Shown here piece after piece: positions 2,327 through 22,869 of a stretch of 34,499 nt of DNA. Location: IMG/VR virus record IMGVR_UViG_648276647_000016, positions 1 to 34,499 of that record. One strand, written 5' to 3'. The notes under the pieces are model-generated. The model did no database searches. It worked only from the letters and a program-made list of their open reading frames with translations, and had not been told where the DNA came from. The first letter of the stretch is position 1, and every line of letters begins with the position of its first letter. The stretch is from a virus (lineage: Duplodnaviria; Heunggongvirae; Uroviricota; Caudoviricetes). The position numbers and the translations under genes were made by a program.

Positions 2327-2341
2327 GTGACATGTCTCGAC

Positions 2342-2755
2342 TTATAAAGATGACTGATATTTTACAACTCTGTTCATGGCATCTTTTTTCACCGAGCTGA
2401 TATCAGTTCTTATTTTGGCTTCGTCATTACTGCTTATCATGCTATTAATTTTTTGCACTGACATGCCGTTTCTTTCAGCCATTGCACATACAGCAGCATC
2501 GTATGAAGAACTCGCTGCGATGGATATCACCTTGTTACACTCAAACACAGCACCTTCAGCAATATCAGATGCCGATGAGGCTGGCTTGGTATAAGTCTTG
2601 ACGTAGTGATCAATACAACTATCCTTCGCCGTCTTGGCAAGAGAAAAATCCATTTTAACTTTGTCGCAATATGCCTTATCAACACCGTCATAAACATCAT
2701 AGGATGTCGAGCAAGCGGATATCAAAAATACCGATAACAGCAATAATTCCTTCAT
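2342..2755 (-). CDS. Lipoprotein, AT-rich moron (candidate superinfection-exclusion protein)
   Basis: 137 aa; N-terminus MKELLLLSVFLISAC has a hydrophobic core and lipobox ending in Cys. Gene is visibly AT-richer than its neighbours. Confidence 0.6.
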   Translation of the reverse strand: MKELLLLSVFLISACSTSYDVYDGVDKAYCDKVKMDFSLAKTAKDSCIDHYVKTYTKPASSASDIAEGAVFECNKVISIAASSSYDAAVCAMAERNGMSVQKINSMISSNDEAKIRTDISSVKKDAMNRVVKYQSSL

Positions 2756-2764
2756 TGTTGTTCC

Positions 2765-5239
2765 TTATTGCGGAGTGACATCCTGAGGTCGCCACCAGTA
2801 TGTCTGGTTAAACTCTTTCTTTGAACGTTGCTCCATTTTACGCAAATAGCCTGGTGAAAAATACTCCTGCATCTGGTTAAAGATCATGTGATCGAGAGCC
2901 GCCTTCAAGTACCAGAGATTCGCACCAGGCATCAAACCTTTCCCCAGCTTAACCAGATCACCACCAGTCTGCTCATTCTTCCCTTCCACAGCATTTAACG
3001 GTATGCCCTGAGCAATCTTCACTACGTCATCAACCAGACCAACTACCGGGCCAAGCATCGACGCTAGTGCGCCGCTCCCGTACCTGGTGTGGTCAGAGAA
3101 AAGAAAATCACCGTACAACCCTGCCCCACCACCTTTTAAAAATGCATTTATCCAGAATTTAACCATGTTGTCACCGGTCATTTCTTTTGGATTTCTCCCA
3201 TTAATAAGATCAGTAATCTGCATGGAAAGAGCACCAAGCATGGTTGTGCTTGCTAAAAACGTTGCTATATATGCTGCACGCCCACCAGCAGACGGCATCC
3301 CCATAGCTCTATGCCAGTGACGCATAACTACCGAGATAGGGAACGATTTAAACAGGAAAACACTTCTCGTTAATTCACCTTTCCATGTTCCACGCTGAAT
3401 ACCAGAACCGGTTATCAGTTGCTCACGTGCTCCCGGTGTAATAACAGCCATATCAACTTCTTCAGTTACGGCACCGAGCAGTTTACGCATTGCCTCAAAT
3501 TTCACGCGTTCAGGCTCACCAAGATGTTTAACTGCTGAATCAGGGATACGCATAATGCTTTCCGGTGTCAGCATCGTATTATTACCGTTCCCCCAGTCCT
3601 CCTGTTGCGCCAGCTTCCATACGCTCCAGTCTGTGTCAGTAATCCCTTTGCTTTTCAGGATACGAAAATCAGAGTCATCGAGGCTACGAAGGTCTGGCGT
3701 CCGTGACACTACTTCTCCCAGGCTTCCCATCATGGTTACGCCATAGGCGCGCTTGTGCGCATCTGACCATGCTGTAAGCCCACTGGCACGCATTACGGCC
3801 GTTGCCGCCCAACGAGACACTGACGGCCCCATATTATCCATCGCCCAGCGGTTAACGCTGCCAAGTAGAGATTCCATCGCCAGACCAGCGCGGCGCGCCC
3901 GCACAAGTTCTGTACGGTTCGTTGGGTCCATAGCTTCAAGCTGGTTGCGGAATAACTGGTTCATTGGAAGGTTGGTAACCTTCGCCGACAGATACATGGT
4001 TCCAAGATCAGAGAACGATGACAGCAACGCGGATCCGAGTCTGCTGGCAACCAGCCAGTTGCGGATATTGTCAGACCATCGCGCGATGTGCGGATTCGCT
4101 ACAGGCTGTGTCTTTCCGGAAATAAAGTTGTACAGATTCTCTGTGTTGTTCGCCAGCCGCTCGACTTTACCGGTTTTACTCGGGTTAGCTGTTGCCGTTT
4201 CTGCCTTCACCTGATCAAGAAGAGAGCGGAAAACATGATCGGGGTTTGGGCCATATGTTTCCACCAGTGCAATATCTTTACTGATACCTTCCAGGTGACC
4301 GACCATGATTTCCCATAGAGAGCGATCGCCATAAAGTTGCTGATATTGCAGATAGGAATCTGCATCTTTGAAATGTATCTGTCGTGATGCATTACCACGG
4401 TTAGCACGTGCGCCGGAAATTCGCATTCCGGTATCAGTAAGCTTATTCAGCCCACCAGTAGCGATCGTGTTATAAGCCTCTCCAAGAAATGCAGACAACT
4501 CAGCATCGTTCATCAGTTGTCCATCGGCTCGGGTATAATATTTGCGATCCAGCTTACCTATAACATCGCTAACCCACTTATCCTTTGATACCGCCCCAAC
4601 CTTTTCCATAGAATGATGTTGAGGGATCCCCCAGTTTTCGAGATAGCCAATGTCCCCACCAGCATCATTAAACCGGCGGCGCAGTAGCTCTGTCACTTCT
4701 CTCCACGCCTTAGCACCTTTTCTTGCTTTAGCATTGCCAGTATTTTGCCCCCGCATTTCATATACCAGGTCACGTACGCCCGCTTCATCTTCAAACAGAC
4801 CAAAAAAGCGAGGATCAACTGCTTCGAATGCCCCCTGCAATTGACTCAATGCATAATCACGGGTGGCTTTTGTTCTGGATTCAACAGAGAGGAAATTCGA
4901 TTTACCGTCTGCATTAAAAGCAATAGTACGGTTAAGAGCACCGAGTTTCCCATCAGCCCCTTGATAGCTATTGATAAATTTATCCAATCTCTGACGTGCG
5001 GCTATAGTGAGGGCCACACGACGTTTATTTAATGCCGCTTCTCGCTGTAATTCTTCAGATGCCAATTGTGCTGCTCGATATAGCCGCTCTGATTCGGAAA
5101 GTTGTCGCCACGACATCGGGTCATCACGAGCAATGGAGCGCATATTTCGATAAATGCGGTCTTCAATGTTCTGTATTTCTCGCGCCGTTAACGTGCGCTG
5201 CGCCGCCTGCTGGACCGCTTGTATACATTCCTGTCTCAT
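2765..5239 (-). CDS. Internal virion / ejection protein, large (T7 gp16-like by position and size)
   Basis: 824-aa ORF, last large gene of the late operon after two other internal-protein genes; assignment is by synteny and size, not a recalled sequence match. Confidence 0.5.
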   Translation of the reverse strand: MRQECIQAVQQAAQRTLTAREIQNIEDRIYRNMRSIARDDPMSWRQLSESERLYRAAQLASEELQREAALNKRRVALTIAARQRLDKFINSYQGADGKLGALNRTIAFNADGKSNFLSVESRTKATRDYALSQLQGAFEAVDPRFFGLFEDEAGVRDLVYEMRGQNTGNAKARKGAKAWREVTELLRRRFNDAGGDIGYLENWGIPQHHSMEKVGAVSKDKWVSDVIGKLDRKYYTRADGQLMNDAELSAFLGEAYNTIATGGLNKLTDTGMRISGARANRGNASRQIHFKDADSYLQYQQLYGDRSLWEIMVGHLEGISKDIALVETYGPNPDHVFRSLLDQVKAETATANPSKTGKVERLANNTENLYNFISGKTQPVANPHIARWSDNIRNWLVASRLGSALLSSFSDLGTMYLSAKVTNLPMNQLFRNQLEAMDPTNRTELVRARRAGLAMESLLGSVNRWAMDNMGPSVSRWAATAVMRASGLTAWSDAHKRAYGVTMMGSLGEVVSRTPDLRSLDDSDFRILKSKGITDTDWSVWKLAQQEDWGNGNNTMLTPESIMRIPDSAVKHLGEPERVKFEAMRKLLGAVTEEVDMAVITPGAREQLITGSGIQRGTWKGELTRSVFLFKSFPISVVMRHWHRAMGMPSAGGRAAYIATFLASTTMLGALSMQITDLINGRNPKEMTGDNMVKFWINAFLKGGGAGLYGDFLFSDHTRYGSGALASMLGPVVGLVDDVVKIAQGIPLNAVEGKNEQTGGDLVKLGKGLMPGANLWYLKAALDHMIFNQMQEYFSPGYLRKMEQRSKKEFNQTYWWRPQDVTPQ

Positions 5240-5244
5240 TTAAT

Positions 5245-7047
5245 TTAACCTCTCAAGAAACACGCCACAGCGACATCAAACAGGCTGGAATCCTGTATTG
5301 CCTGCTCACTTTCCCTGTTCGCTTCATCCAGTACTTCACGCGCACTGCGCGATTGTGGATTACCATCATCATCCAGCACGGTGATTATCATGTCAGGTGA
5401 TTCAAGCAGCGAGTCTTCAGCTATGCGCAGATCAATATCTCCTGCCTGATCTGACATCATTTTTTGTTCTGCCTGTTGCAATATTTTATCAGGCTCAAAA
5501 GGAGCTACTTCGTCTGGCGTCCTGACCTCTGCTGTTTTATAGAATGAAACAGCCTGAGCATTAAGTTCACTTTCTGCCTGCTGTCTCCGAGCCAGTTCTG
5601 CTCGAGCTTCAAAAAACTGACCGCCAGGCTCGTGCGGTGCCAACGCGTTACGGGAAAATTCCAGGCGTTCTTGTGCCTGCCGGATTCGTTGATCAATATC
5701 GCGAAGTCTGGCCTGTTTATCTGATCGAGCACGAGACAAAGCTTTACCGCTACCGGTTGGCTCTTCTGCAAGAATTTGTGCACGCTGTTCAGTGAGATTT
5801 TCAATAATTCGTTGGCTATTAGCGATTTCAGACTGGTAAACCTGTCTATCTCCACGCGGCAAAAGCTGCGCGGCCTGTTCTTCAAGCAACCGATTTTCTA
5901 TAGCGCGCGCCGTTACTCCATCATCTACAGATGACAGAGCCTCATTAACTGCCTGAGACAGCAGACTCTTGCGCCCAGGAATTTCACTGAAAGATGCAGA
6001 CTCAACAATGCTCGCAACGTCTACAGGTCTCCCCTGGCTAACATCAGACATGGCTTTTCGCAGAGCCTGAATGTGCGAATTACGCGAAAGCACGTTGATC
6101 GGAACGCCGGGAGCAATATCAATTTCAGCATGATGAGCGGCATTCGCCGCCAGTGCAGCATCGATATCAACTGGTGAAAAATTTGGTGCGCTTGTAGGCT
6201 CGCCGCGAGAGTTAATAAATCTGCCGACACCACCAAACGCCACCCCAAGAACAGCATCAATAGCAATTGCCTGTCGATCCAACACATCATACTGGTTAGC
6301 CATTTCGCTATAGCCACCATCACGAAGCGTTTTTGCAGTAAGCACACGCTGTGCCATACCGAACGCAATATTTGTACCTGCGGCATAGGCAATATCTGGC
6401 GTTGCACGTACTGCTGTTGCTGCGGCGCGTCGCACTGAACTTTCACCCGTCCGCGCAAGCTGAGCCGCCACACCTTCCGCCAGCGCACCGCCAGCACGTA
6501 ACCCGAGGCTCATTGGGATCAGTGTTCCGGCACCAGCAGTAATACCCTGCACTAATCCCGCTTCCTGCGCCGTCCTGAAATCAACACCCTGTGCTGTCAG
6601 CCGTTCAAACTCAGAAAAACCCTGTAGAGAAGTTACTGCCGCAGCACCTCCGACCGGACCACCGAGCGTTGTACCGACAACAGCCTGCCCGCCCATATCG
6701 AACAACCCATAAAGGACCTGCCCGGCGCTTCCGGTTGTCGCGGCATCAGGCGTCAGCCGCTTAACCTGCTGCTCTGCTAGTTTTCTCTGCTCAGCAATGT
6801 ATGAAACTGAAGTGTCATTGAGCGAGGTGTTTTCGTTAACAAACTGAGCAATCGGGGATACGATTTTATCCATCCCTGCCCATAGCAACTGATCTGGCTT
6901 TGCCACCAGCCCGGAGTACAAACCAGACAATGCCGCGCCTACAGCATTGTCGAAAAAACCAACATCGCTGTTAAAGCCAGCTGGATTTGATGCTGCTTCG
7001 TCAAGCTGCTGATTCTGGTTTACTGGATTAAGGCCAAAGTAACTCAT
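5245..7047 (-). CDS. Internal virion / ejection protein (gp15-like by position)
   Basis: 600-aa ORF, Gly/Ala-rich N-terminal half and coiled-coil-like C-terminal half; 4-nt overlap with the upstream gene. Confidence 0.5.
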   Translation of the reverse strand: MSYFGLNPVNQNQQLDEAASNPAGFNSDVGFFDNAVGAALSGLYSGLVAKPDQLLWAGMDKIVSPIAQFVNENTSLNDTSVSYIAEQRKLAEQQVKRLTPDAATTGSAGQVLYGLFDMGGQAVVGTTLGGPVGGAAAVTSLQGFSEFERLTAQGVDFRTAQEAGLVQGITAGAGTLIPMSLGLRAGGALAEGVAAQLARTGESSVRRAAATAVRATPDIAYAAGTNIAFGMAQRVLTAKTLRDGGYSEMANQYDVLDRQAIAIDAVLGVAFGGVGRFINSRGEPTSAPNFSPVDIDAALAANAAHHAEIDIAPGVPINVLSRNSHIQALRKAMSDVSQGRPVDVASIVESASFSEIPGRKSLLSQAVNEALSSVDDGVTARAIENRLLEEQAAQLLPRGDRQVYQSEIANSQRIIENLTEQRAQILAEEPTGSGKALSRARSDKQARLRDIDQRIRQAQERLEFSRNALAPHEPGGQFFEARAELARRQQAESELNAQAVSFYKTAEVRTPDEVAPFEPDKILQQAEQKMMSDQAGDIDLRIAEDSLLESPDMIITVLDDDGNPQSRSAREVLDEANRESEQAIQDSSLFDVAVACFLRG

Positions 7048-9557
7048 TGCGGAATATCTCCGGAGAATCTCTGACGTTTCTGTGTCAGATTAAGAACAAC
7101 GGGAGAACCATCATCTTTCAGCAGATAACCAGTACCAAGTTTCACCAGGTACTGACTATCGCCGTAACTTTGCAAACCATACTGACCAGGCGGTGTTTTT
7201 ATCCCGGAGCCGACTACTTGTTCATTCCAAGCCTGATTAATCTGCTTATCGAATTGCTCTGCAGACATTCCCCACGGCAAAAGGACATTCCCCATTCCGT
7301 TATAGTCATGCACGCCACCTGTAGCTACGTTAACAGCCTGTTTCCAGACATCATTGTCAATTTCGCCTGATACCACGCCTTTTTTCGCCATCACACCAGC
7401 GTAATAATCCTTTGCGATCTCGTATGCCATTGATGCCCCCTGAGCGTCACCAGCAAATGCATCCTTCACCATGTCAGAAAACTCAAGGCGAAGATCAGCA
7501 TCTTTAGGCATCGGAATACCTTTCGCATCATCAGTACCTTTACGAGCCGCCGCGCCAGCAAGAATTGTCTGCGCAGCGGTTTCAGGAGACACGGAAACAT
7601 CCGGATTAAACCAGTTTTTTTCTGCCAAAATACCACCAGGCTTATCCATCAGTATCCCGGCAACGGCAGCAGATGGAGCGTTGGCACTGATCTGCTGTAG
7701 TGCTGACATATACACCTGCCCACCACCAGTGCTCTGCCTGATGGTATCGAGATATGCTGCCTGTTGGGAAACTGGAGCATCACGAAAGAAAACACCGATC
7801 TGATTGGCCTCGTCTTTGGAAAAGAACGTCAGTGGAGTGCCATATGACTTAGCAAGATCACTGACCTGAGCGGCACGCAAGGCAACGCTCTGTCCAAAGT
7901 TATCCTTATTGCTCATGTCGATAGGCTTTGCCTGTCCGGAGGCAAGAGAGAACTGCACAGGATCCGACTGCCGCTGCTTTATCACCTGATTTGCAGCCGA
8001 AACAACGTTGTCATAAAGAGCTGCGCGTGCCGCATACCCCTCCCCTGTCTCACCAGTATCCGGGCGTAATTGCTCAACATATGCTGTAATGCTGCTTGTC
8101 GGCATGTTGCGGAAAGAGCCTATATACTGTCCGGCGATCTGTGTATTTCTGAACTCGGTATATCGCAGGTTTCCTTCTCTGACGCCATAAGCTGCAATAA
8201 AATCATCCTCACCAGGTGGGTTAGGGAATTCAACGCCACGCATATACGCAGCCGTCGCATCGCGAACCTGGCTGTCAATCATCGTTTTATATTCAGCCTG
8301 CTGCTGCCGACGCAGTTGATCCGCCTGTCGCATAAAACTTGCCTGCGCCTCAGGAGATGCCGCATCGAATGCTGCATTACCGGTATAGCGTTTGGTGTTG
8401 GTTGGAATTGTTGATAAACCAAGTGCTGCACTGACACCAGCAGTTAACTGCTGATCACTGTATGGCTGGTTACCGTTCTCATGATGGATAATGGCTGCAC
8501 AAAGCGCCTTCAGGGTATCAGGATTAGATGCATCGAGAGGATCATCAGCAGAAACGCCAAGTTGTTCGCACACTGCTTTGATATACGACATAGTATCATT
8601 TTTATCAGTAGGCGGTGCCCAGCGATTAATTATCTCGCTGACGGTATCAATACCCTGCCTCTGATACGACATCAGGTTTCGCCCTAATGCACGAATCCCG
8701 TGTTCAGGTGTTTCGAATTTAGCAAATCGACCATCATCACCGGTCTGGCCTACCCACGGATTAGTTTTGCTGTATTCGAGATTTCCTGGGTTATTGTTGC
8801 GTATGCCACGGGCACGCTCGGAAGAGTCACTATCTGCTACAGCACGGCGAGCTCCAGCAGCAGTATCACTTAACTCGCCATTACTTTGGATGAATGCGGT
8901 CGCATTGTTTGCCGACCACTGGGACAATGCGGCATCAGCAACCTTCTCTTTAAACTCGATTTTCTTGGCCTGGATTTGCTCGTCGCTCCAGCCATGCGCA
9001 ATGCCGTAATCCTCAATTTGCTGGAAAGTTTGCTTATTAGCCAATACGTATGCGGCATTGTCGCCATACAATGCTGCGGCATTTTTACCATTATTCAGCA
9101 GCGTCGCCTGAAACTGACCTTCTTCGTAGGCATTAATTTGCCCTATCTCGTGCCGCCCGGCCTGCGTAGTGAACTGAATGCGCTGCTGCTGTGCCTGCTG
9201 CATGAAAGCATTACGGGCCTGTTCATCCGGCAGCGACATAGCCAGTTGCTCGATCTGGGCATCAAACTGCTGCGTATACTCCTGACCTTTTCCAATAGCA
9301 TTTTTCCCTTTCAGGTTAAGCAAACCTGTTTCAGGGTTATTCAGCAGATCGCTGCTTATCTGGCTTAAGCTAAGAGAAGCATCCTGAGCCATAGCAACAT
9401 TCGCACGCTGTTTTGCCTGCGCAATAATACCTGCATATTGCTCTGCAACATCGCCAAGTACATCACCGACATTTGGTGTCTGAAACGATGAGAATCCCTG
9501 CGTCGAAATCCCTCTGCTTTGAACCTGACGGCCCGATGTTGTTGGTACAACTGGCAT
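7044..9557 (-). CDS. Internal virion protein with a putative cell-wall-degrading domain
   Basis: 837-aa ORF; contains GIRNNNPGNLEYSKTNPWVGQ...FAKFETPEHGIRALGRNL, a motif I associate with virion-associated muralytic domains of podovirus internal proteins (from memory, unverified). Confidence 0.5.
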   Translation of the reverse strand: MPVVPTTSGRQVQSRGISTQGFSSFQTPNVGDVLGDVAEQYAGIIAQAKQRANVAMAQDASLSLSQISSDLLNNPETGLLNLKGKNAIGKGQEYTQQFDAQIEQLAMSLPDEQARNAFMQQAQQQRIQFTTQAGRHEIGQINAYEEGQFQATLLNNGKNAAALYGDNAAYVLANKQTFQQIEDYGIAHGWSDEQIQAKKIEFKEKVADAALSQWSANNATAFIQSNGELSDTAAGARRAVADSDSSERARGIRNNNPGNLEYSKTNPWVGQTGDDGRFAKFETPEHGIRALGRNLMSYQRQGIDTVSEIINRWAPPTDKNDTMSYIKAVCEQLGVSADDPLDASNPDTLKALCAAIIHHENGNQPYSDQQLTAGVSAALGLSTIPTNTKRYTGNAAFDAASPEAQASFMRQADQLRRQQQAEYKTMIDSQVRDATAAYMRGVEFPNPPGEDDFIAAYGVREGNLRYTEFRNTQIAGQYIGSFRNMPTSSITAYVEQLRPDTGETGEGYAARAALYDNVVSAANQVIKQRQSDPVQFSLASGQAKPIDMSNKDNFGQSVALRAAQVSDLAKSYGTPLTFFSKDEANQIGVFFRDAPVSQQAAYLDTIRQSTGGGQVYMSALQQISANAPSAAVAGILMDKPGGILAEKNWFNPDVSVSPETAAQTILAGAAARKGTDDAKGIPMPKDADLRLEFSDMVKDAFAGDAQGASMAYEIAKDYYAGVMAKKGVVSGEIDNDVWKQAVNVATGGVHDYNGMGNVLLPWGMSAEQFDKQINQAWNEQVVGSGIKTPPGQYGLQSYGDSQYLVKLGTGYLLKDDGSPVVLNLTQKRQRFSGDIPQ

Positions 9558-9569
9558 CTTATTATCCCC

Positions 9570-10573: not shown

Positions 10574-13044
10574 CAGAATCCCCCAACAGTAAGGCGAGGA
10601 ATAACGGCAAGAACAGACAGCGGCAACGGATCAAGCTGACGGATTTTTACACGTCCATTTTTGCCCCAGTTACTGTCCAGTTTCACTTCTACTTTTCCGG
10701 TAGCGTCATCAACAGGATCATCGTAGAACTCGAATTCACGCTGTGGATATTCGTACCATTTACCGCCTAGCGTAGTCGCCCAGATGCCGCGACTAGCATT
10801 CACAACCAGAGTAACGGAGGGGATCACCTGTTTTTTGTCCAGCAGCGTTTCCTGTCCGTTAATGTTGATATCCAGTGTTTCGAATTCAGCAGTTATTGGC
10901 AGGCCGATGTGCACTACAGCCCCCGGAGATTCCAGTGTAACGGCACCTCCGGAAACCACTTTCTGTGGTTCCACGTTCGCATCAGAGAGAATGTTTACGG
11001 TCTGGCCTTCAAGATGAGACAGGCCTCCAAATGTCCGGCGCGCCATCTGCCAGTTCGTGGTGGCCACATTCCTGAGTGATGGCGGGACGTTCCTGTTAGC
11101 ACGAACCACTACAGCGGTATTGCTGGTTACAGAAATAATGTCGCAACGTAATTCTTTTGACACTTCATCGCCAGTATCAGGATCAGTTCCGGTATAAGGG
11201 AACTGTAGTTGCGCACCGACATCACTACTGGTGAAGTACGCACCACCAGAAACACTGATTGTATATTCCGCGCGGTAATCCCATTCACCAGAACCACCAG
11301 TGATGGTCATCGTTCTGTCAGACGTATTTCTTCCATCATAGCTAAGGCCAGAATCAACAAAGAAAGCGTCTTCATCGCTGGTAAATAAACGGCTGGACAG
11401 CCGCTCGATGTATCTCACTGTTTGCCCGTTAACGGTTCGGTTAACGACGAAATACACCGCATCTTCATTGCCTTCGCTGATACTGCACGTGCTTTCATAT
11501 TTTCCGGTACTGGACTGTGGTGCCCATGCAAAAACCTGTTGATCACGCAAATAGGTCATCACCAGTAATTTACCGTCATCACGAATGCAGAAGGCGCTGG
11601 AGTAAGGGACAATCGAGAAGCACCAGTCAACAATGCTGTGCTTCTGAAAAAGATGATTGGCAAGGATGGTCAGGTCGTTCCCCTGATAGCCATCAACATC
11701 GAATGAGTAGGCCAGATCACGGACAACACTGCCTTTCTCCTGGACGAACAGAGCAATATTCGCCACAGCAATTGGTGGGACGTTGCTTGAGCCATTTGAT
11801 CCCTGAGAGCTGAATGCAAATGATGATGGGGTTAACACTTTGTTCTGGTCACCGGTGATGACGTACTCACCTCCGGAAGTCAGTGCCACCAGCGAACCGA
11901 CATCAATCAGGTGGCGGATCTCATTAACCTGACGCCCGGCATAGGTGTAGATAATTCTGTCGTCATCCTGCGTAGGATTGCTTTTGCCAAAATCCTTATA
12001 ATCCCCAGTACGGCTGGCCCAGATAGTCTGAGGGAACGCTGTCGATGCGGCGAAGTAAAGACGTTGTTGATAATAAACAACAGTGCCAGGATAACCATTA
12101 ACACTGTTCCAGGCATATTTAGCCCATTTATAGCTGGCATTATCCTCGCCAACGACCTGCGAAGGGATATAGGAAATCACCTCAGCAGTTGCAGTAGTGC
12201 CATTTGCAGCAGTGATACGGGCAATGCCAAAACCACTGTGCAGATATTCCCACTCAATGCCAGTATCATCATCACCGGATCCGCCCCAGCCATCCCATGA
12301 TGTGCCTTCTGTATGCGAAGGGCGCAAAGTACCTGTTTTGCCTGCTGTAACGGCGCGATAGTAGTTACTGTCTGCACGGCGAATATCGCCAATCGACGTA
12401 CTCTTACTGGTTTCCCATACCGGCACTGAATCCACTGCAGGCTGTTCCAGATAGAACAATTTGCCTACCTGCTCCGCGCCAAAAATAGAGGCGCTTGCCG
12501 TTAACGTAATTGTCCCGGTGCTGGCGCTGGCATAAACCGTCACTGACTCATCAATATTGATATCTTCAAATGGCCCGTTCTTCGTTACCACATCAACCAG
12601 TTGCCAGTTGTCATGAGCATATCGGCGCAACTCTTTCGGCGGGTATGCCGGGTGAACCAGCGTAAGCACGTCGGCGCTTTGCGTGAATTTAATTCGGAAC
12701 AGATCGGCTTCAGTATATGGCGTGGCAATTTCATAAATAACATTGCTGCTGTTCAGCACCAACGCACCATCTTTGATAACGCGCATGTACTGGTGTCCGA
12801 ACTCCAGAGCATAGGTCTGAACCGTCGAGAACTGGAACGGGATCAGGCGGCATTTCCGATTTGGGTATTTGGCGGCACCGACAAAACGCGTACCAGGTCG
12901 ATTCTCAACGCCGCCATACTGCCGCACGATAAAGTTATCGCACTTGCGCAATGCCACCTGGTACTTCGCCATGTCGATACGACCGTACAACGACGGTCCA
13001 ATCTCACCACCGGCAAAGCTGGGCTGTATCCAACTGATAGCCAT
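10573..13044 (-). CDS. Tail tubular protein B-like (T7 gp12-like nozzle protein)
   Basis: 823 aa, size and position downstream of a gp11-like gene; weak N-terminal resemblance to gp12. Confidence 0.5.
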   Translation of the reverse strand: MAISWIQPSFAGGEIGPSLYGRIDMAKYQVALRKCDNFIVRQYGGVENRPGTRFVGAAKYPNRKCRLIPFQFSTVQTYALEFGHQYMRVIKDGALVLNSSNVIYEIATPYTEADLFRIKFTQSADVLTLVHPAYPPKELRRYAHDNWQLVDVVTKNGPFEDINIDESVTVYASASTGTITLTASASIFGAEQVGKLFYLEQPAVDSVPVWETSKSTSIGDIRRADSNYYRAVTAGKTGTLRPSHTEGTSWDGWGGSGDDDTGIEWEYLHSGFGIARITAANGTTATAEVISYIPSQVVGEDNASYKWAKYAWNSVNGYPGTVVYYQQRLYFAASTAFPQTIWASRTGDYKDFGKSNPTQDDDRIIYTYAGRQVNEIRHLIDVGSLVALTSGGEYVITGDQNKVLTPSSFAFSSQGSNGSSNVPPIAVANIALFVQEKGSVVRDLAYSFDVDGYQGNDLTILANHLFQKHSIVDWCFSIVPYSSAFCIRDDGKLLVMTYLRDQQVFAWAPQSSTGKYESTCSISEGNEDAVYFVVNRTVNGQTVRYIERLSSRLFTSDEDAFFVDSGLSYDGRNTSDRTMTITGGSGEWDYRAEYTISVSGGAYFTSSDVGAQLQFPYTGTDPDTGDEVSKELRCDIISVTSNTAVVVRANRNVPPSLRNVATTNWQMARRTFGGLSHLEGQTVNILSDANVEPQKVVSGGAVTLESPGAVVHIGLPITAEFETLDININGQETLLDKKQVIPSVTLVVNASRGIWATTLGGKWYEYPQREFEFYDDPVDDATGKVEVKLDSNWGKNGRVKIRQLDPLPLSVLAVIPRLTVGGF

Positions 13045-13978: not shown

Positions 13979-13983
13979 TCCTG

Positions 13984-14004: not shown

Positions 14005-14022
14005 TTGTCTGATCCGCGAGGC

Positions 14023-14367: not shown

Positions 14368-14368
14368 C

Positions 14369-14806: not shown

Positions 14807-14821
14807 CTTCTTTCTCCATTA

Positions 14822-14841
14822 GTGGGTCTGTTACGACCCAC
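14822..14841 (-). other. Intergenic stem-loop (GTGGGTC-TGTTAC-GACCCAC) between capsid and decoration genes
   Basis: Perfect 7-bp stem, no U-tract; likely an RNA stability or processing element. Confidence 0.35.
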
Positions 14842-14857
14842 AGGTTAATAACAGGCG

Positions 14858-15850: not shown

Positions 15851-15858
15851 TTCCTCTC

Positions 15859-16572
15859 TTATTTGCCATAGAGCACTTCGGCCGCACTACGCTGGCCTTC
15901 ATTACCACCGGTGACCATGCCATCTTCAGACATCGCCTTTCCGATTTTCACGAACGTTTTGACCAGATCAGGGTGATTACCCAGCCCGGTGGTGTTCAGA
16001 TATTCTTTGAGTTCAGGTGTCCCGAACTGGTCAAGCGCACGCTGTGCGGCGCTAAGGTTAGAAATCAACTTGTCGCCACCGATTTCTTTGTCAGCTTTTA
16101 CATCCGCAGCCCACTGCTCGGTTGTTTTCTGCCAGGCTTCTGCCTGGCGCTGCTGCACACCTGCCAGAATCTTCGGATAAGCATCAACCAGCTTTTGCGC
16201 TTGCTCGTTGGTCAGGTTTAGTTCACGCGCCACCGGCTCGAATTCCTTCAACGCTTCTGTATCCAGCTCTACGCCTTCGGCAGCATGAAATTCGTACTTC
16301 TCCGGCGCACCCTCTGGCTTCTTATCCTTTTCTGCTTCTTCGGTATTGGCTTTTTCAGCAGCAAGCTCTTCCTCAGTTTTCTGAGCTTCAGAACCTTTCT
16401 CAGAGTCAGTCCCCTGGGAGTTATCCTGCGACTGGGTTTGCTCCTGCATTTCACCCGAGCCCTGAGTGGTTTCAGTTGCTCCCGTTGAAGCTGTATCTGC
16501 CTGGCCACCTTCAGTGGATTGCTCATTGCAAAGACGGCGATACAGCAAACGCTCAAATAAATTCATGATCAC
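15859..16572 (-). CDS. Scaffolding protein
   Basis: 237 aa, very acidic with low-complexity Glu/Lys/Ala/Gln stretches, between portal and capsid genes. Confidence 0.6.
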   Translation of the reverse strand: MIMNLFERLLYRRLCNEQSTEGGQADTASTGATETTQGSGEMQEQTQSQDNSQGTDSEKGSEAQKTEEELAAEKANTEEAEKDKKPEGAPEKYEFHAAEGVELDTEALKEFEPVARELNLTNEQAQKLVDAYPKILAGVQQRQAEAWQKTTEQWAADVKADKEIGGDKLISNLSAAQRALDQFGTPELKEYLNTTGLGNHPDLVKTFVKIGKAMSEDGMVTGGNEGQRSAAEVLYGK

Positions 16573-16865
16573 TCCTGTTCACTGGCCTCTTTGGCCATCT
16601 TCAAATACTGTTCAGGGCAATGCGCCATAACGCGCTGAAACAGTTCCAGCGCCAGATTGCGTTGCCCCTCATTAAATGCCATTGCCATAGCGTCCATCGG
16701 TGAGATAGCGGAAAACACACGGCCTTTCTCCAGCACCGACCAGACAACGCGACGCCCCTGTTCACTGCTCATGACAAAGCGAATGTCATCAATTTCACGC
16801 TGCGCCATGTCACGTTGCTTACGGGCGTTTTCTTCTTTCAGTTGATCGTCTTCGTAATCTGTCAT
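16569..16865 (-). CDS. Hypothetical protein translationally coupled between portal and scaffold
   Basis: 98-aa ORF; start overlaps the portal stop and stop overlaps the scaffold start. Confidence 0.45.
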   Translation of the reverse strand: MTDYEDDQLKEENARKQRDMAQREIDDIRFVMSSEQGRRVVWSVLEKGRVFSAISPMDAMAMAFNEGQRNLALELFQRVMAHCPEQYLKMAKEASEQE

Positions 16866-18541
16866 TGTGATTGCCCACCCTGACTACTAACTGCATTTGC
16901 CATAGCTGACAAAACACTCGGATCCGAAGTTTTAGCTTCGCTTAGCGTCTTGGCGCCCTGTGCCGCCGCCATCCCCATCGCCATCATTTGTTGCTGCTGT
17001 TGTTGCTGTGCCCGTTGCTGGCGAGCCTGCTCAACCTGTTCCTGCGGAACAATGACGGTTGGAGACACTCCGGACATATCAGCGAATGCATCAATCGCCT
17101 GATCAACGTTGAGTTTGTCGAGAGCTTCTGGTTTCGCTTGCGCAAGTTGACCAATGAAGTTAACCGTGGACGCCAGACTGGACAGGCCGATAGACTTCTG
17201 CGCCTGAGCCATGACGGAAATGTATTCGACCTTCAGGGGCATGCCTTCCATCGCGTCAGGCGGTGGGGGCAGCATGTTTTTACGCACCATCATCGAGAAA
17301 GCGCGGTCAATAAGAGGATTAAGACATTCGTCGTTCAGACGCTCCAGAACCGGCCCCAACATCAGAAGTTTTTCTTCTTTCATTTCGATCACCGCTTCAA
17401 CAGGCATCGAGCGGGTATTGATGTTCTGCAACATCATGAACAGATCGACAAAGTAGGCGCTGTTAATGATTTGACGAGTGTCCTGAATGTCTGCCACCAA
17501 ATCTGCTGTACTGGGGTTAACCAGATAAGCAGGCCTGAAGCCATCCTGACCAGTAATCTGATCGATATACGTGATGTCGCCAGGAAGAAGGGAGGCGCGC
17601 TGATTCTTGAGGGAAGTCGGAGCAACCATCGGCGGATTGGTGGCTTTATCAATCAACTGCGACTTGCGCTTCTGGAGAAGCTGCAATGCCTTAACAGGTC
17701 CAAGCGCCAGCATACCCGGGCATGATGATCCATAAACATCTTCGCCGTTAACTTCCCAGCGCGGAGCCATAATTGGAAACTCATCGAATCCGGACTCACG
17801 CAACAACTTGTCGTTATCGCCACCAACCTCGTAATAAACCGATTTGAATGGCTTGTTCTTGCTATCCAGCTTCGATGTATCGCGGTCAATGTTCGGGTAA
17901 ACCGAATGCATCACTTCAATCCACTTCTCGTAGGTGCCGCTTTCCCACATGCTTTTTACGGATTCGCTGACGTTATTTAGCCCGAACTCCTGAACAAGCT
18001 GACGAACAGTCATAGAGAACTTGCGAAAACAGGTGTCCACACTGCCACGAGGTGAGTTAGCCAGGTAGTAACTGCCTATCGGGAATGGCATTGTGCGAAT
18101 GATGTCCTCGTCATCCTCCAGCACTGCCATTGCACCAGTGCTGTATGTGCCGAGGCTTCCGTATAACTGCGGCAGCGACTGATAGAGATTCGACTTATTG
18201 AACATATCGTTCATGCGGTTCTGCACCGCCTCAAGCCACAACTTAACAGGGCCATAATCCATCATTTCAGGATCTGGCGTAGCCAGGCGAAACCACGGAC
18301 GCGCGGGGCTTGTGATGCCTGACATCATGCCACTAGCGAGAGTGCGCGCCGCCATAGTCCCGGTCGAATCAATAATGCGTGTATTGCGTCGATCGTTACG
18401 GTTGACCTCAGAAGTCAGAAAGCGGGAACCACGCGGGTTGATGTAATCACTCAACTCGCGCCAGTGCGGCTCGAACGACTGACGCTCGCTTTCAAGTTGT
18501 GCGAACTGTTTGTTCAATCGCTCTTTAGTTGTTTCCGCCAT
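16862..18541 (-). CDS. Portal (head-to-tail connector) protein, T7 gp8-like
   Basis: 559 aa; overall architecture and Gln/Ala/Met-rich C-terminal tail (QQQQQQQMMAMGMAAAQG) as in T7-supergroup portals. Confidence 0.7.
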   Translation of the reverse strand: MAETTKERLNKQFAQLESERQSFEPHWRELSDYINPRGSRFLTSEVNRNDRRNTRIIDSTGTMAARTLASGMMSGITSPARPWFRLATPDPEMMDYGPVKLWLEAVQNRMNDMFNKSNLYQSLPQLYGSLGTYSTGAMAVLEDDEDIIRTMPFPIGSYYLANSPRGSVDTCFRKFSMTVRQLVQEFGLNNVSESVKSMWESGTYEKWIEVMHSVYPNIDRDTSKLDSKNKPFKSVYYEVGGDNDKLLRESGFDEFPIMAPRWEVNGEDVYGSSCPGMLALGPVKALQLLQKRKSQLIDKATNPPMVAPTSLKNQRASLLPGDITYIDQITGQDGFRPAYLVNPSTADLVADIQDTRQIINSAYFVDLFMMLQNINTRSMPVEAVIEMKEEKLLMLGPVLERLNDECLNPLIDRAFSMMVRKNMLPPPPDAMEGMPLKVEYISVMAQAQKSIGLSSLASTVNFIGQLAQAKPEALDKLNVDQAIDAFADMSGVSPTVIVPQEQVEQARQQRAQQQQQQQMMAMGMAAAQGAKTLSEAKTSDPSVLSAMANAVSSQGGQSQ

Positions 18542-18555
18542 TTCAATGACTCCGG

Positions 18556-18762
18556 TTACTGACCAAGTAGCGTTTTACCGCTGGTATTAGCGGTTGATGT
18601 GTCGCCCTGAGAACCGGTAAGCAGCGTAGAACTACGACCAGCAGCAGCGCGACGGCGACGTGTTTCTTCGTCGCGGGCATCAACAACGGCGGCATCCTGC
18701 TCCTGTGGTGCTGCCTGAACTTCTGGTGTTGCAGGCACTGATGGTGAGCTACCCATGCACAT
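18556..18762 (-). CDS. Hypothetical small Ala/Pro-rich protein upstream of portal
   Basis: 68-aa ORF ending 14 bp before the portal start; low-complexity, could be non-coding. Confidence 0.25.
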   Translation of the reverse strand: MCMGSSPSVPATPEVQAAPQEQDAAVVDARDEETRRRRAAAGRSSTLLTGSQGDTSTANTSGKTLLGQ

Positions 18763-18830
18763 ATCAATGACTCCGTACGCAATTAAATTATTACCAATTT
18801 AACCACATATGATTTATTTGTCGTAGATAG

Positions 18831-18867
18831 TTGACATTTAACGCACAAATTATTACCTTTAGGGTAA
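18831..18867 (+). promoter_or_regulatory. Promoter-like element (TTGACA at 18831-18836) with operator palindrome TTACCTTTAGGGTAA (18853-18867)
   Basis: Resembles the PL-like promoter/operator at 28395-28438; oriented toward the tRNA module. Confidence 0.45.
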
Positions 18868-19189
18868 CAAAAGAGTTCATTCCGTTTACTAACCTGACTG
18901 GCTTGTCGTTAAATTGAACAGGTGGAGTGAGCTTTTATTTTGAGCAGTACGGCGTATGGCACATGCGCCGATAGCGGTCTGGATACGTTTAAGGGGCACC
19001 CTCCCTTGCTCGGGCAAACGAACCAGGTAGCCGGAATGTGCAAGTCGAGCGGTTTTATTCCGCGCACGGGGATTCACCATCCCGGCGATTCGGTGTGACA
19101 CCTCGGAAGAGACGAGGGTACAACGATGAGAGCATTTATGGAGCCGCGACAAAGTGTGGCGCCTTAACAGGCTAAGTGCTCTCAGCGTT

Positions 19190-19266
19190 GTGGCATTAGC
19201 TCAGCTGGACAGAGCAACCGCCTTCTAAGCGGTTGGTCGCAGGTTCGAATCCTGCATGCCACGCCA
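19190..19266 (+). tRNA. tRNA-Arg (anticodon UCU)
   Basis: Hand-folded cloverleaf: acceptor GTGGCAT/ATGCCAC, D-stem GCTC/GAGC, anticodon stem ACCGC/GCGGT with loop CUUCUAA, T-arm GCAGG-TTCGAAT-CCTGC, discriminator G and encoded CCA. Confidence 0.85.
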
Positions 19267-19464
19267 GAATCACGCCTAAGGACCGTGATGCCAGAAGTTC
19301 CAGGGGCTTGGCGGTGATGGTTTCCCTTGAAGGACTATCACCGCCCTTTTTACAGCAGGACGCCATTGCGATGACTTCATGCTGTAAACCAGTACAGCCA
19401 CGGAAGGCATAACTCATTGCTTCCAGTTCGCCCGGTTCGCCGGGCATTTTTTTAAGGTGAGATT

Positions 19465-19821
19465 ATGAACGACCAGCAAATCGAAAAAGAAATCGTTGAG
19501 AAAGGCAAAACGGCACCGCGAGTTACGCCCCAATATATCGAAAGCATCATTCTTGAAGAGCATTTCTTTACTGCTTATGACGGTATTCGTGCCGCCAATA
19601 TGGGCGTTGGCGCTGCGTGGACAGCGCATAAATCTACAGACCTCCTTACTTTCTGCGTACTGGTGCTGAAGAATGGCTTCACCGTCACCGGAGAGAGCGC
19701 CTGTGCAAGTCCGGAAAATTTTGATGCAGAAATTGGTCGGAAGATTGCCCGGCAGAATGCTGTAAACAAAATCTGGATGCTCGAAGGTTACTTGCTGAAG
19801 CAGAAGCTAAGCGAGCAATAA
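19465..19821 (+). CDS. Conserved small phage protein (possibly N4 Gp49 / Sf6 Gp66-like)
   Basis: 118-aa ORF downstream of the tRNA; family assignment is a tentative recollection. Confidence 0.45.
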   Translation: MNDQQIEKEIVEKGKTAPRVTPQYIESIILEEHFFTAYDGIRAANMGVGAAWTAHKSTDLLTFCVLVLKNGFTVTGESACASPENFDAEIGRKIARQNAVNKIWMLEGYLLKQKLSEQ

Positions 19822-19825
19822 CACC

Positions 19826-19837
19826 GTGACATGTCAC
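19826..19837. repeat. Palindrome GTGACATGTCAC (copy 1, flanks cCGTGACATGTCACAa)
   Basis: Exact 12-bp palindrome between the Gp49-like gene stop and the terminator. Confidence 0.6.
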
Positions 19838-19842
19838 AAACA

Positions 19843-19870
19843 GCCAGCCGATGAGCTGGCTTTGTTTTAT
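19843..19870 (+). terminator. Rho-independent terminator (AGCCAGC-CGATGA-GCTGGCT + TTTGTTTTAT)
   Basis: Perfect 7-bp stem followed by a T-rich tract; sits between the convergent plus-strand module and the terminase large-subunit gene. Confidence 0.6.
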
Positions 19871-19911
19871 CCTCACCAGAGGATATCAGCAGCATTATCC
19901 CCTCCAGCGGA

Positions 19912-21387
19912 TTAAGCATAGGGATCGTAATCAGTGATGGCCTTGCCTTGCTGGTTCTGCTGCCCGGGAATTCGCAGGCGCTTCGACACAGGGAACGCAA
20001 ACGTCAGCAGTAGCGCATCGCCTTTACCCGGCGAACGCCCAAGCCGCTCCTTGATATCTTCCTTCGGTTCGATAACGATTTTACCGTCCACTCGAACTTT
20101 GTACTCTGCCGCCGACAGGTCGTCCGCTGTTTCCTGGTCATCCAGCATCCCGCCGAGCCTCAGCCATATCTTGCATGCATTGAACATCTCCCCACGCTTG
20201 TTGAGCATCTGAGGGTCAGTAGACGCGCCACCGAACGGAACAAGTTGCCATGTACGACCCCACCCGTCACCGATTGACTTCAGACCAGTTCCGTAACCGA
20301 AGTCGATGAACACTGCGTCAGCCTGGTACTGGTCTTCAAAGTCAGCGATACGCTTCGCCATAATCAGATCGTCAGTGGTCTTGTTGCCAGTCCACAGCAC
20401 CTTACTGTGCAGACCCTGCCGCAGGTATATCACAGCGTCATCAACGCCGGAGTATGCCGGGTCAACGCCGATTATCACCGGAGCATGTGCAACCTGCGCA
20501 GCGGTTACCACCCGTTTCATTGCCTCGTCAGTAAGGCCGGTAGGGATAAACTGCAATTCAGATGCATCCGGGAATATGCCGCGCACACGGATTTTAACGA
20601 AATCGCTGTCTTCCCCGTAGTCATCAACCCATTTCTGCAACTGCTGTTTGTTAGTGCCTTCCACCGTCCGGCTGTCAATCTGCGCAGTTTTCCAGCGGTG
20701 TTTATATTTGCGGAAACATTCGCGGAAACGCCCGGTGTTACGTGTCGGGTTTCCGAACGCCACCCAGATAATCTCAGTGTCTTCGTCCGTAAGCGCGCCC
20801 TCAGCAACTTCCCACACCAGATCCGCAATGTTCGACGCTTCATCGAATACCACGATGATGCGTTTGCGCTCGTTGTGTAGTCCGGCGAATGCCTCAGTAT
20901 TGTGCTCAGACCAGGGGATTGCGTCAGCTCGCCACCGCTTGTCGTGCCCAGGATCATTGCTGTACATCGCGGTAGCGGTACAGGTAAACCAGTCTTTCGT
21001 GATAGCAAGGTTCGACCACTTGATAATTTCCGGCCAGGTCTTCGTTCGTAGCTGGTTGTCGGTGTTGGCGGTCACCACGACCTTACAATCCTCGCAAGTG
21101 GACATGCCCCAGTTGATCAGCATTGAGATGAATGCGGATTTACCAATACCGTGACCAGAAGCGCGTGCCAGCATAAGCGGCTGATAGCGCGTCTCTGGAT
21201 TCTGCAGGTGATCACGTATCTCTCTGAACGCATCAGCCTGCCACTGACGTGGACCGGTGGCATGTGCTAATTCAGTCCCCTCTTCCCCCCACGGGAACGC
21301 ATAGAGGGCATAGCCAAGCGGATCGTGAGTGAACCCTGCAATATCCTCGATCAACTGCTCTTCAGGAGATAACGCTGTATCTGTCAC
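19912..21387 (-). CDS. Terminase large subunit
   Basis: 491 aa with an N-terminal ATPase-like region (GHGIGKSAF Walker-A-like) and C-terminal nuclease-like region; 4-nt overlap with the upstream small-subunit gene. Confidence 0.75.
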   Translation of the reverse strand: MTDTALSPEEQLIEDIAGFTHDPLGYALYAFPWGEEGTELAHATGPRQWQADAFREIRDHLQNPETRYQPLMLARASGHGIGKSAFISMLINWGMSTCEDCKVVVTANTDNQLRTKTWPEIIKWSNLAITKDWFTCTATAMYSNDPGHDKRWRADAIPWSEHNTEAFAGLHNERKRIIVVFDEASNIADLVWEVAEGALTDEDTEIIWVAFGNPTRNTGRFRECFRKYKHRWKTAQIDSRTVEGTNKQQLQKWVDDYGEDSDFVKIRVRGIFPDASELQFIPTGLTDEAMKRVVTAAQVAHAPVIIGVDPAYSGVDDAVIYLRQGLHSKVLWTGNKTTDDLIMAKRIADFEDQYQADAVFIDFGYGTGLKSIGDGWGRTWQLVPFGGASTDPQMLNKRGEMFNACKIWLRLGGMLDDQETADDLSAAEYKVRVDGKIVIEPKEDIKERLGRSPGKGDALLLTFAFPVSKRLRIPGQQNQQGKAITDYDPYA

Positions 21388-21980
21388 TGATTACCATCCT
21401 GACGTTCTTTGAGTCGCTTCCTGGCTGCTGCTATGCGATCAGCAATTGTCACATTCACATTAACATCCAGACGTTCTTTGAACGCGTTGACATCAACATG
21501 CTTACCAATCAGCTCAAGATTCTTCACCTTGTCAGGCCATTTAATTTTTTTGAGGATTGTCTCTATCGAATCCTCGTTCATGTTCATGATGGTCGATGAC
21601 AGATCAAAGCCGCTAAGCGTAGTGCGCCAGATTTTCGGCCACTCGCGGATTGGCTTAAGGCTCCCATCGTCGTTGAGGATATCAATCACGTCCATCTGGT
21701 CGATCTCCACCAGGCGCATGAGAACGTAATCAGCACTGACACGCATTCGTTTGTTGCGCTCTTCCATCAGCTCGGCAATCCGTTTTTGAATGCGTTCATC
21801 GCGCATCATGACACTGGCTTTAACTGCCGCTGTATTTGGGGAGAATCCTGCGTTAATCGCTGCCTGAGTCTGGTTTTCAGGCGTTTTGATGTATGACTGG
21901 CAATAAGCCTCCTGCATTGCTGTTAGTGGCTTAAATTGCGTTGATTTGCGTTTATAGGTTTTAGGTTCAGCAGGCATCAT
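21384..21980 (-). CDS. Terminase small subunit
   Basis: Position immediately upstream of the large subunit with overlap. Start placed at the ATG at 21978-21980; the track start at 22058 is a TTG preceding a low-complexity Thr/Val stretch. Confidence 0.55.
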   Translation of the reverse strand: MMPAEPKTYKRKSTQFKPLTAMQEAYCQSYIKTPENQTQAAINAGFSPNTAAVKASVMMRDERIQKRIAELMEERNKRMRVSADYVLMRLVEIDQMDVIDILNDDGSLKPIREWPKIWRTTLSGFDLSSTIMNMNEDSIETILKKIKWPDKVKNLELIGKHVDVNAFKERLDVNVNVTIADRIAAARKRLKERQDGNQ

Positions 21981-22054
21981 AACCACCGTGGTAATAGTTA
22001 CCGTTGTGGTAATAGTACCATGCAAAATAAAGCCGCCATAGTTGGCGGCAGTAT

Positions 22055-22288
22055 TCAAAGTCCATCAAATTCATCGTAAAAACTCTCGTCAAGATACCCT
22101 TCCCATTTACCGCGAATGAAAATTACATCCTCGCCGCAAGGGTGCTGACTGTCGATAACTATATCCCTCCTGGCGCAACCATACTTATGCATGAGAAATT
22201 TAACCTCTTTCGGAAAATTTGCTGAGTTATCTCTCATATCTTCAAGGTCGTAGCGTATTTTTGGCATAACACCTTCGTGACATGTCAC
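22055..22288 (-). CDS. Hypothetical protein
   Basis: 77-aa ORF; its ATG lies inside the palindrome GTGACATGTCAC (22277-22288). Confidence 0.4.
   Translation of the reverse strand: MTCHEGVMPKIRYDLEDMRDNSANFPKEVKFLMHKYGCARRDIVIDSQHPCGEDVIFIRGKWEGYLDESFYDEFDGL
22277..22288. repeat. Palindrome GTGACATGTCAC (copy 2, flanks tCGTGACATGTCACAc)
   Basis: Exact copy overlapping the start codon of the 22055-22288 gene. Confidence 0.6.
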
Positions 22289-22858: not shown

Positions 22859-22869
22859 CAGGAAATGGC

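Follow-up and report, generated by a model that had tools for sequence, protein, structure and literature searches.

A matS-like palindrome at three operon ends of a phiV10/epsilon15-like prophage as the candidate DNA site of a phrog_536 family protein

In Escherichia coli, the protein MatP recognises matS, a site of 13 base pairs (bp) with the form GTGAC(A/G)N(T/C)GTCAC (PMC3116907; PMC3603311), which it binds through a central ribbon-helix-helix (RHH) (PMC12756933). No matS was found in 500 Escherichia and Salmonella prophages, and avoidance of the site was argued by Bobay and colleagues (PMC3603311). In this study, we analysed a palindrome with the arms of matS and a centre one base shorter in a viral DNA stretch of 34,499 nucleotides (nt) (IMG/VR record IMGVR_UViG_648276647_000016; hereafter, the window), which is a phiV10/epsilon15-like prophage (genus Uetakevirus) of E. 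coli. Since prophages are reported to avoid matS, the enrichment of this one-base-shorter version, approximately 70-fold in the phages considered here, is notable. From sequence comparison, we consider it fairly probable that the 112-amino-acid (aa) protein of family phrog_536 encoded at 22285-22623 of the window has the palindrome, YGTGAC-AT-GTCACR, as its cognate DNA site.

In phage lambda, the last early gene (Q) is followed by the DNA site of its product (QBE), then by the terminator tR' and the late genes. No Q-type late activator is annotated in epsilon15 or phiV10, and we know of no account of timing control in Uetakeviruses. A conserved protein with one site at the early/late boundary and one at each of two other operon ends would be a concrete, testable candidate for such control. 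We found no description of such a pair, of the palindrome and its variants or of the family member N15 gp46 in the searchable literature.

The palindrome in the window and in related Uetakeviruses

The 14-mer CGTGACATGTCACA occurs exactly at 19825-19838 (copy 1) and 22276-22289 (copy 2), both on the plus strand, as a preliminary description of this DNA had reported, and its 12-bp core, GTGACATGTCAC (19826-19837 and 22277-22288), is a perfect palindrome. A third, degenerate copy, CGAGACATGTCACA, lies on the minus strand at 2326-2339 and reads TGTGACATGTCTCG on the plus strand. With one mismatch, it agrees with the motif at 13 of 14 bases and with the core at 11 of 12; the preliminary description had its position and plus-strand reading right, but counted 10 of 12. 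The mismatch falls in a single mutated arm, GTCTC, which contigs with identical flanks keep as GTCAC.

All three copies stand in the same order of gene end, palindrome and terminator. Copy 1 is separated by 3 nt from the stop codon of the preceding gene, which is Gp49/Sf6-gp66-like, and by another 3 nt from a terminator stem that begins at 19842; copy 3 lies 3 nt past the stop of the 137-aa last gene of the late operon and abuts its terminator stem. Copy 2, which had initially been set over the start of the gene upstream of the terminase small subunit gene (terS), overlaps instead the TGA (22287-22285, minus strand) that closes the phrog_536 gene, with 9 nt separating it from ATG 22267 of a 70-aa gene. 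It is this ATG that probably starts the next gene, clear of the palindrome, since GAAGG precedes it and the resulting length agrees with a 213-nt RefSeq coding sequence (CDS) of a close relative. Neither the terminator beside every copy nor the likeness to matS had been part of the preliminary description.

Epsilon15, only about 81% identical to the window even within the terminase genes, carries exactly three copies of the core, at 39612 (gp49 stop), 2142 (beside the terL terminator) and 19517 (gp18 stop, ahead of a terminator). The same three places are occupied in epsilon15, Tyrion, BUCT554 and TW14425, the last a close relative of the prophage, integrated beside guaA in the strain of that name. 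They are also occupied in phiV10, with one copy mismatched (GTTAC at copy 2), while BUCT711 has two of the three and two copies within coding sequence. Place by place, copy 1 has its counterpart in phiV10, epsilon15, Tyrion and BUCT554, and the motif is intact at the copy-3 place in TW14425, phiV10, epsilon15, Tyrion, BUCT554 and BUCT711. Among 80 close relatives chosen by homology to the 112-aa protein, copy 2 was intact at the stop codon in 75 of 79 and altered by natural single-base variants in four, and it was followed by the 70-aa gene in 24 and not in the other 55.

The GenBank records of phiV10 and Tyrion were opened inside the palindrome (phiV10 ends in GTGTGA and begins with CATGTTAC; Tyrion ends in GTGACA and begins with TGTCAC), so that a linear scan of either record misses the third copy. 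A genome end or a pac/cos site was considered as the nature of the palindrome and rejected, given three copies per genome and the circularly permuted genome of Tyrion (PMC5754475); because of this permutation the record ends are regarded as arbitrary.

Alignment with related prophages, proposed as a check in the preliminary description, showed the motif to be conserved at the three places and homology breaks to cluster at its edges. When the window was compared by BLAST with 223 fetched loci, ends of high-scoring segment pairs (HSPs) piled up there, 70 at 22275, 29 at 19816-19826 and six at 2339-2340. The motif of the window thus has the property by which lambdoid boundary sequences are recognised, a conserved sequence at homology breakpoints. 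The slot upstream of copy 1 holds unrelated genes in other phages, and the gene upstream of copy 3 is unrelated in at least five of seven genomes, in which a spacer of 1-11 nt separates the palindrome from a hairpin of changing loop, yet the 12-mer stays constant. Upstream genes and terminator stems likewise differ among these Uetakevirus genomes. With 14 bp constant amid such turnover of accessory genes, the site also marks mosaic junctions.

These breakpoints are what would be expected of a recombination linker, that is, of a 14-mer kept as a crossover point for relaxed homologous recombination or a site-specific enzyme, with protein binding incidental. Besides the HSP endpoints, such a linker would account for the persistence of motif and hairpin next to unrelated upstream genes at copies 1 and 3 and for the insertion or loss of the 70-aa gene flush with copy 2; the window phage encodes RecT and an exonuclease, and boundary sequences are an accepted concept in lambdoid phages, bsq2-bsq7 being annotated in the Sf6 record. 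We nevertheless consider this explanation improbable. Fourteen bp is short for RecT-type annealing, and sharp breakpoints are expected anyway beside a selected site flanked by turnover-prone genes. Furthermore, ZF40, N15/phiKO2 and K303 (see below) have copies that are not mosaic junctions, because they lie inside conserved genes with homology on both sides, and a linker leaves unexplained why the arms are invariant and the centre free, why the site goes with one gene and why three different junctions share one sequence. The module boundary put forward in the preliminary description is therefore borne out by the breakpoints, but recombination does not suffice as the primary function; for a protein-binding site, service as microhomology for exchange may be secondary.

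Two further observations concern the limits of the motif. Sf6 and an Stx2 phage carry the Gp49-like gene without the palindrome, homology ending at its stop codon, and the possibility that the palindrome is part of that gene was rejected on this ground. Within the window, a fourth match with two mismatches, at 16801, falls within coding sequence and looks like chance.

The number of matches with up to two mismatches was not reached in any of 100 shuffles of the window. A repeated 14-mer is by itself unremarkable, because three or four further unrelated 14-mer pairs are present; a recurring perfect 12-bp palindrome is rarer than such pairs, arising in 4 of 300 dinucleotide-preserving shuffles. 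The window scan revealed no other arm spacing and no additional near-copies of note, and the pentamers GTGAC/GTCAC are not enriched (57 observed vs. 67 expected). The statistical case within the window is only moderate, and it is the comparative evidence that is decisive.

The palindrome and the phrog_536 gene across phage lineages

Family phrog_536, listed as "transcriptional regulator", includes epsilon15 gp49, phiV10 p55, N15 gp46 and ZF40 gp22. A set of 21 loci, one genome per species, was chosen solely by homology to the 112-aa protein (60-81% identity; Citrobacter to Pantoea and Erwinia). GTGAC-NN-GTCAC was present in 15 of these loci, on the stop codon of the homologue in 14 and just past it in one. 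What comes directly after the palindrome has no relation between one locus and the next and may be a LexA-box promoter, a terminator, terS or another gene, and conservation stops precisely at the last base of the palindrome, outside which only Y and R are preferred. Homologues of 46-55% identity also keep the palindrome. In addition, all seven loci of the species set that bear a Uetakevirus terL have a second copy after it.

The same pairing recurs far from the Uetakeviruses. ZF40, a Pectobacterium myovirus whose protein is 66% identical, has three copies with the centre AT, one 2 nt past the stop of the gene and two inside genes. The linear plasmid-prophages N15 and phiKO2 (protein identity 35-37%) have three copies each, with the centre TG/CA, located 3 nt past the stop, inside repA and in the leader of the antirepressor region. 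In the Vibrio siphovirus K303 (31% identity) there are three copies with the centre AC/GC, one of them just upstream of terS. Among the phrog_536-bearing genomes, nine of ten contain two to four copies and Yersinia phage vB_YenM_42.18 contains one, against 0.035-0.048 expected per genome, whereas both gene and site are missing from lambda and Sf6. In an all-against-all blastp of epsilon15, ZF40, N15 and K303, phrog_536 was the sole family common to at least three of them. The protein-site pair is thus found among podoviruses, in a myovirus, in linear plasmid-prophages and in a Vibrio siphovirus, and spans at least four unrelated lineages within a small family of 186 protein clusters at 50% identity; the hosts of the phages that bear the site belong to Enterobacterales, Vibrio and Aeromonas. 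One site lies between the early genes and the late switch, represented by terS in the Uetakeviruses and K303, by the NinB-Q block in ZF40 and by the Q start codon in some lambdoid prophages.

A functionless repeat hitch-hiking with neighbouring conserved DNA would be compatible with the few unrelated 14-mer pairs of the window and with those public matches that are plain coding sequence (the Q antiterminator N-terminus MRDMSQ). This explanation is effectively refuted by the occurrence of three copies per genome in four independent lineages (Uetakevirus, Pectobacterium ZF40, N15/phiKO2 and Vibrio K303), where about 0.04 would be expected, by the exact end of conservation at the palindrome edge, and by the Gp49-like gene of Sf6 and the Stx2 phage, which does without the motif.

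Across lineages the arms GTGAC/GTCAC stay unchanged and without compensatory substitutions, and it is the two bases between them that differ. Within one genome the centre is largely the same, being AT in enterobacterial phages (BUCT554 and BUCT711 also carry variants), TG/CA in N15 and phiKO2 and AC/GC in K303; in N15 and K303 it is asymmetric and occurs in both orientations relative to the sense strand. The copy within repA of N15-type elements is identical in 36 distinct sequences, four synonymous positions included, while adjacent codons vary; RepA relatives at 46-50% identity lack the palindrome. Invariant arms without compensatory changes around a free centre therefore point to a symmetric dimer that reads duplex DNA, not to an RNA stem.

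An RNA element was weighed against this pattern. A GUGA-CAUG-UCAC hairpin in 3' untranslated regions (UTRs) could serve in RNA processing or stability, or recruit an arginine-rich antiterminator in the manner of nut/boxB. The Uetakevirus copies are indeed transcribed just 5' of a terminator, recalling cro-nutR-tR1, the N-terminus of the phrog_536 protein is basic, and a small hairpin appears in some minimum-free-energy folds. That hairpin, however, has only 4-5 bp and is missing from several such folds; stems held constant around a varying "loop" are the reverse of an RNA stem; and the asymmetric centre is found in either orientation to sense, with copies also inside coding sequence. We regard an RNA element as very unlikely.

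A DNA site read by the phrog_536 protein accords with the predicted structure of that protein. The 112-aa sequence has no Pfam family and no sequence-detectable relative of solved structure. An AlphaFold model from a 65-sequence alignment reached a pLDDT of 90, as against 62 for one built from 15 close sequences. In the better model a basic helix at residues 5-19 leads by way of a short extended stretch into two helices, 30-42 and 52-74; a zinc ribbon, in which C79 and C82 are invariant, and one more helix complete the chain. The prediction is read as a basic helix, a putative RHH and a C-terminal zinc ribbon. Foldseek searches with the model against the PDB and a viral library returned nothing useful. 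The C-terminal half aligns weakly with DksA/TraR zinc fingers (YbiI, E 0.024, and TraR, E 0.05, in hmmsearch of PDB sequences; F TraR, hhalign 70%), and Pfam zf-dskA_traR gave no match; a relation to these zinc fingers is offered as a lead only. With MatP, hhalign gave a probability of 0.2, that is, no detectable sequence similarity.

The phrog_536 protein is favoured as the reader because the site is attached to the stop codon of its gene, because this gene is the only one shared and because its product is modelled with a putative RHH. The preliminary description had already named the adjacent zinc-ribbon protein as a candidate among regulators, and on sequence and model evidence it now appears the best one.

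Two groups of observations stand apart from this association. In lambdoid-type prophages, the 12-mer is found inside a cII-like gene (encoding DMS) and over the opening codons of the gene for the Q antiterminator (ATG CGT GAC ATG TCA CAG); such 12-mers were seen in ZF40 (7622) and in the fetched loci L027, L116, L018, L053, L034, L009, L014, L019, L071, L112 and L121, of which L027, L034 and L071 also bear a phrog_536 homologue. They could be coding coincidences or further regulatory copies. Moreover, five unrelated viral contigs, L107 (around 10830-10930), L021, L069, L040 and L050, contain dense arrays of GTCAC/GTGAC half-sites around an exact 14-mer (e.g., cgtgacaaggagCGTGACATGTCACAaaatgtcacgcctgatgtcacgcc), which look like iteron or operator arrays of another system.

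Operon ends, terminators and a proposed mode of action

The packaging and virion genes of the window lie on the minus strand, and the phrog_536 gene (22285..22623, minus) is the last early gene. In the mechanism we propose, a dimer of its product would read the two GTGAC arms and leave the two centre bases uncontacted. One site lies on the stop of its own gene, last in the early operon, and the other two mark where the terminase block and the late operon end. As the protein accumulates, it may occupy the three operon ends and act on arriving RNA polymerase, by blocking its path or by modulating termination. It might, more speculatively, fix the point at which early transcription gives way to late and protect the late operon from convergent genes on the opposite strand. 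The effect on transcription could be either negative or positive, and the protein may also be envisaged to bridge its sites as MatP does, or to interact with the MatP of the host.

Action on elongating or terminating polymerase is favoured because the sites are found within transcribed DNA or where operons end, outside promoters. A sigma-70 promoter scan gave no promoter-like match at any of the three copies, and comparison by eye across phages revealed no -10 element at a constant distance from the palindrome. A promoter at the palindrome was rejected on this basis. The strong promoter of BUCT554, BUCT711, L203 and L204 is a separate downstream element: in BUCT554 (about 8190-8260), BUCT711 (about 365-430) and the contigs L203 and L204 (3345-3400), TTGACT-17-TATACT stands at most 8 nt past the palindrome on the phrog_536 stop. 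It is overlapped by a LexA box (TACTGT-N8-ACAGTA) and drives a small gene upstream of terS, so that in these phages an SOS-inducible gene occupies the slot of the 70-aa gene of the window.

Several observations weigh against a phrog_536 protein acting at these sites. Some homologues, 6 of 21 in the species set, have no nearby site, and conversely the partial contigs L112, L116, L053 and L026 hold two or three copies with no phrog_536 homologue in the fetched stretch (for L112 and L116, no annotated relatives were found). No recognisable promoter accompanies the sites, late transcription would meet the hairpin before copy 1, which is a misfit with simple antitermination, and a host protein of the same specificity may be the reader.

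Each copy in the window is accompanied by an intrinsic terminator, supported by a terminator scan and by folding. The terminator by copy 1 (19842..19871, plus strand; stem 19842-19861; AGCCAGCC-gatg-AGCTGGCT followed by TTGTTTTATC) sits between the Gp49/Sf6-gp66-like gene (PF13876; 19465..19821, plus), which fills the variable slot upstream of copy 1 on the strand opposite to the late genes, and the terL stop (19912, minus). Downstream of copy 2, the terminator at 22022..22049 (minus; hairpin 22049-22032, GCCGCC-aactat-GGCGGC followed by TTTATTTTGC) is separated from the palindrome by the 70-aa gene (phrog_1541; 22055..22267, minus), a presence/absence variant whose edge abuts the palindrome; in phages without this gene the terminator is 20-45 nt beyond the palindrome. 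The homologous hairpin is annotated as a terminator in the epsilon15 record (39646-39672). Directly 3' of copy 3, the third terminator (2299..2326, minus; hairpin 2326-2309, AGGCCGC-tttc-GCGGCCT followed by TGTTTTTAAC) is located where the late operon converges with a Bro-N/antirepressor-like gene; the variable slot upstream of this copy holds the 137-aa gene (phrog_8691; 2342..2755, minus).

The copy-2 terminator lies inside an annotated N-terminal extension of terS. The RefSeq-style TTG start of this gene at 22058 reads through the terminator (22049-22032) and through an operator-like element between terminator and terS (ATTACC-N5-GGTAA; ATTACCacaacGGTAA, 22011-21996). From homology with epsilon15, the true start is probably the ATG at about 21976 (MPAEP).

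Other features of the window are independent of the palindrome. A segment of about 1.9 kb (22777-24688) has no counterpart in TW14425 and replaces about 2.1 kb of early genes, from the ASCH C-terminus to an ead-like gene. It encodes a 499-aa transposase (22870-24369; phrog_1157, with a Mu-transposase C-terminal domain) and the N-terminal part of an IstB-like ATPase, and looks like a truncated IS21-like element; the prophage may therefore be partly decayed. A tRNA-Arg (tct) gene (19190-19266, plus) overlaps a minus-strand open reading frame (19196-19447; phrog_4647) that is an annotated CDS in phiV10, and one of the two annotations may be wrong. Finally, three adjoining tandem-repeat arrays with periods of 12, 24 and 18 bp (26532-26670; 24-bp unit ATCCCGTTTTTGGGATCATTCAAC, 2.6 copies, 100% match) lie inside a DnaT-like/O-like replication gene and are probably origin iterons.

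Comparison with known systems

For annotation, the palindrome is a reliable landmark of accessory-gene slots and mosaic junctions in these prophages. In this it resembles the bsq elements of HK620 and Sf6, short conserved sequences at junctions of mosaic modules. Those elements, however, measure 31-241 bp and are separate features at separate Sf6 junctions, whereas here one 14-bp palindrome recurs at three junctions and is also found inside conserved genes of other phages.

The sopC-type partition sites of N15 and phiKO2 are likewise three or four scattered copies of one palindrome with a phage-protein reader, which in N15 is a ParB-like partition protein. They differ in sequence, and Uetakeviruses integrate, those examined having no annotated partition genes. 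A scan for palindromes with 5-bp arms recovered four CGACC-armed sites per genome, in N15 at 33482, 35933, 41127 and 45564 and in phiKO2 at 36307, 38747, 43786 and 47020; the latter coincide with annotated "putative plasmid partitioning sites", which served as a positive control for the scan.

With the RHH repressors Arc, Mnt, CopG and omega of pSM19035, the phrog_536 protein shares the predicted fold, and the element can be divided into two 7-bp half-sites within 14 bp. Omega reads WATCACW heptads, which resemble TGTCACR. The operators of these repressors are in promoters, whereas the palindrome stands at gene 3' ends or inside genes, and the phrog_536 family adds a basic N-terminal helix and a zinc ribbon.

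Two bacterial regulators were rejected as readers. The spacing of the palindrome is N4, whereas the CRP site is TGTGA-N6-TCACA, in agreement with the exclusion of CRP on spacing in the preliminary description. The SlmA-binding sequence, GTGAGTACTCAC, is likewise palindromic over 12 bp and agrees with the phage site in its four outermost bases and in spacing; SlmA, however, requires G at position 5 and favours a pyrimidine at position 6, where the phage palindrome has C5 and A6 (PMC3020112).

In its order of gp49, palindrome, terminator and terS, epsilon15 is laid out as the Q region of lambda. The phrog_536 protein has no relation to Q in sequence or fold, no promoter is consistently placed at the site, the palindrome has extra copies at other operon ends, and ZF40 and N15 also encode a Q-like protein.

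The closest likeness is to matS. The taxonomic range of MatP may overlap the host clades of the site-bearing phages, and a host reader, most obviously MatP or else another Enterobacterales/Vibrionales factor, would mean that the phage docks on or interferes with the chromosome-organising machinery. The arms identical to those of matS (PMC3116907; PMC3603311), the hosts, the presence of the sites in several virion types and one true 13-bp matS in K303 speak for such a reader. We think it unlikely all the same. In 10 phage genomes and the window, all palindrome copies are centred on 2 bp instead of the 3 bp by which matS is defined, the sole 3-bp version being that of K303, so that by definition the phage palindrome is not matS; the N15 centre, TG, misfits R-N-Y; and true matS is absent from the 500 prophages surveyed (PMC3603311). 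Neither the attachment to the phrog_536 stop codon nor the standing of that gene as the only shared one is accounted for by a host reader, and SlmA is ruled out as above (PMC3020112).

K303 merits mention for itself. It carries the 13-bp matS GTGACACCGTCAC at 19491-19503 besides three 12-bp sites and encodes a ParA-like protein; it may be a plasmid-prophage that uses host MatP.

The presence of matS arms around a shorter centre poses the question whether phages stay orthogonal to MatP through a spacing variant or interact with the MatP/MukBEF/divisome system. We tentatively raise, as a possibility well short of probable, an undescribed phage system in which an RHH and zinc-ribbon protein reads "matS-minus-one" sites, the shorter centre keeping it apart from host MatP. 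Tethered at operon ends by terminators, this protein would act on RNA polymerase through its TraR/DksA-like zinc finger and serve as the early/late switch of the Uetakeviruses, which have no annotated Q; alternatively, it would be a MatP mimic or competitor that reorganises or hijacks the handling of the host chromosome.

In brief, phage palindrome and matS share identical inverted arms, GTGAC and GTCAC, a small number of dispersed copies and a dimeric RHH reader, which is shown for MatP (PMC12756933) and predicted for the phage protein. They differ in length and centre, 12 bp with a 2-bp centre as opposed to 13 bp with R-N-Y, and in location, since the phage sites stand at operon ends in phage genomes and matS in the chromosome terminus; in place of the four-helix bundle and coiled coil of MatP, the phage protein has a predicted zinc ribbon.

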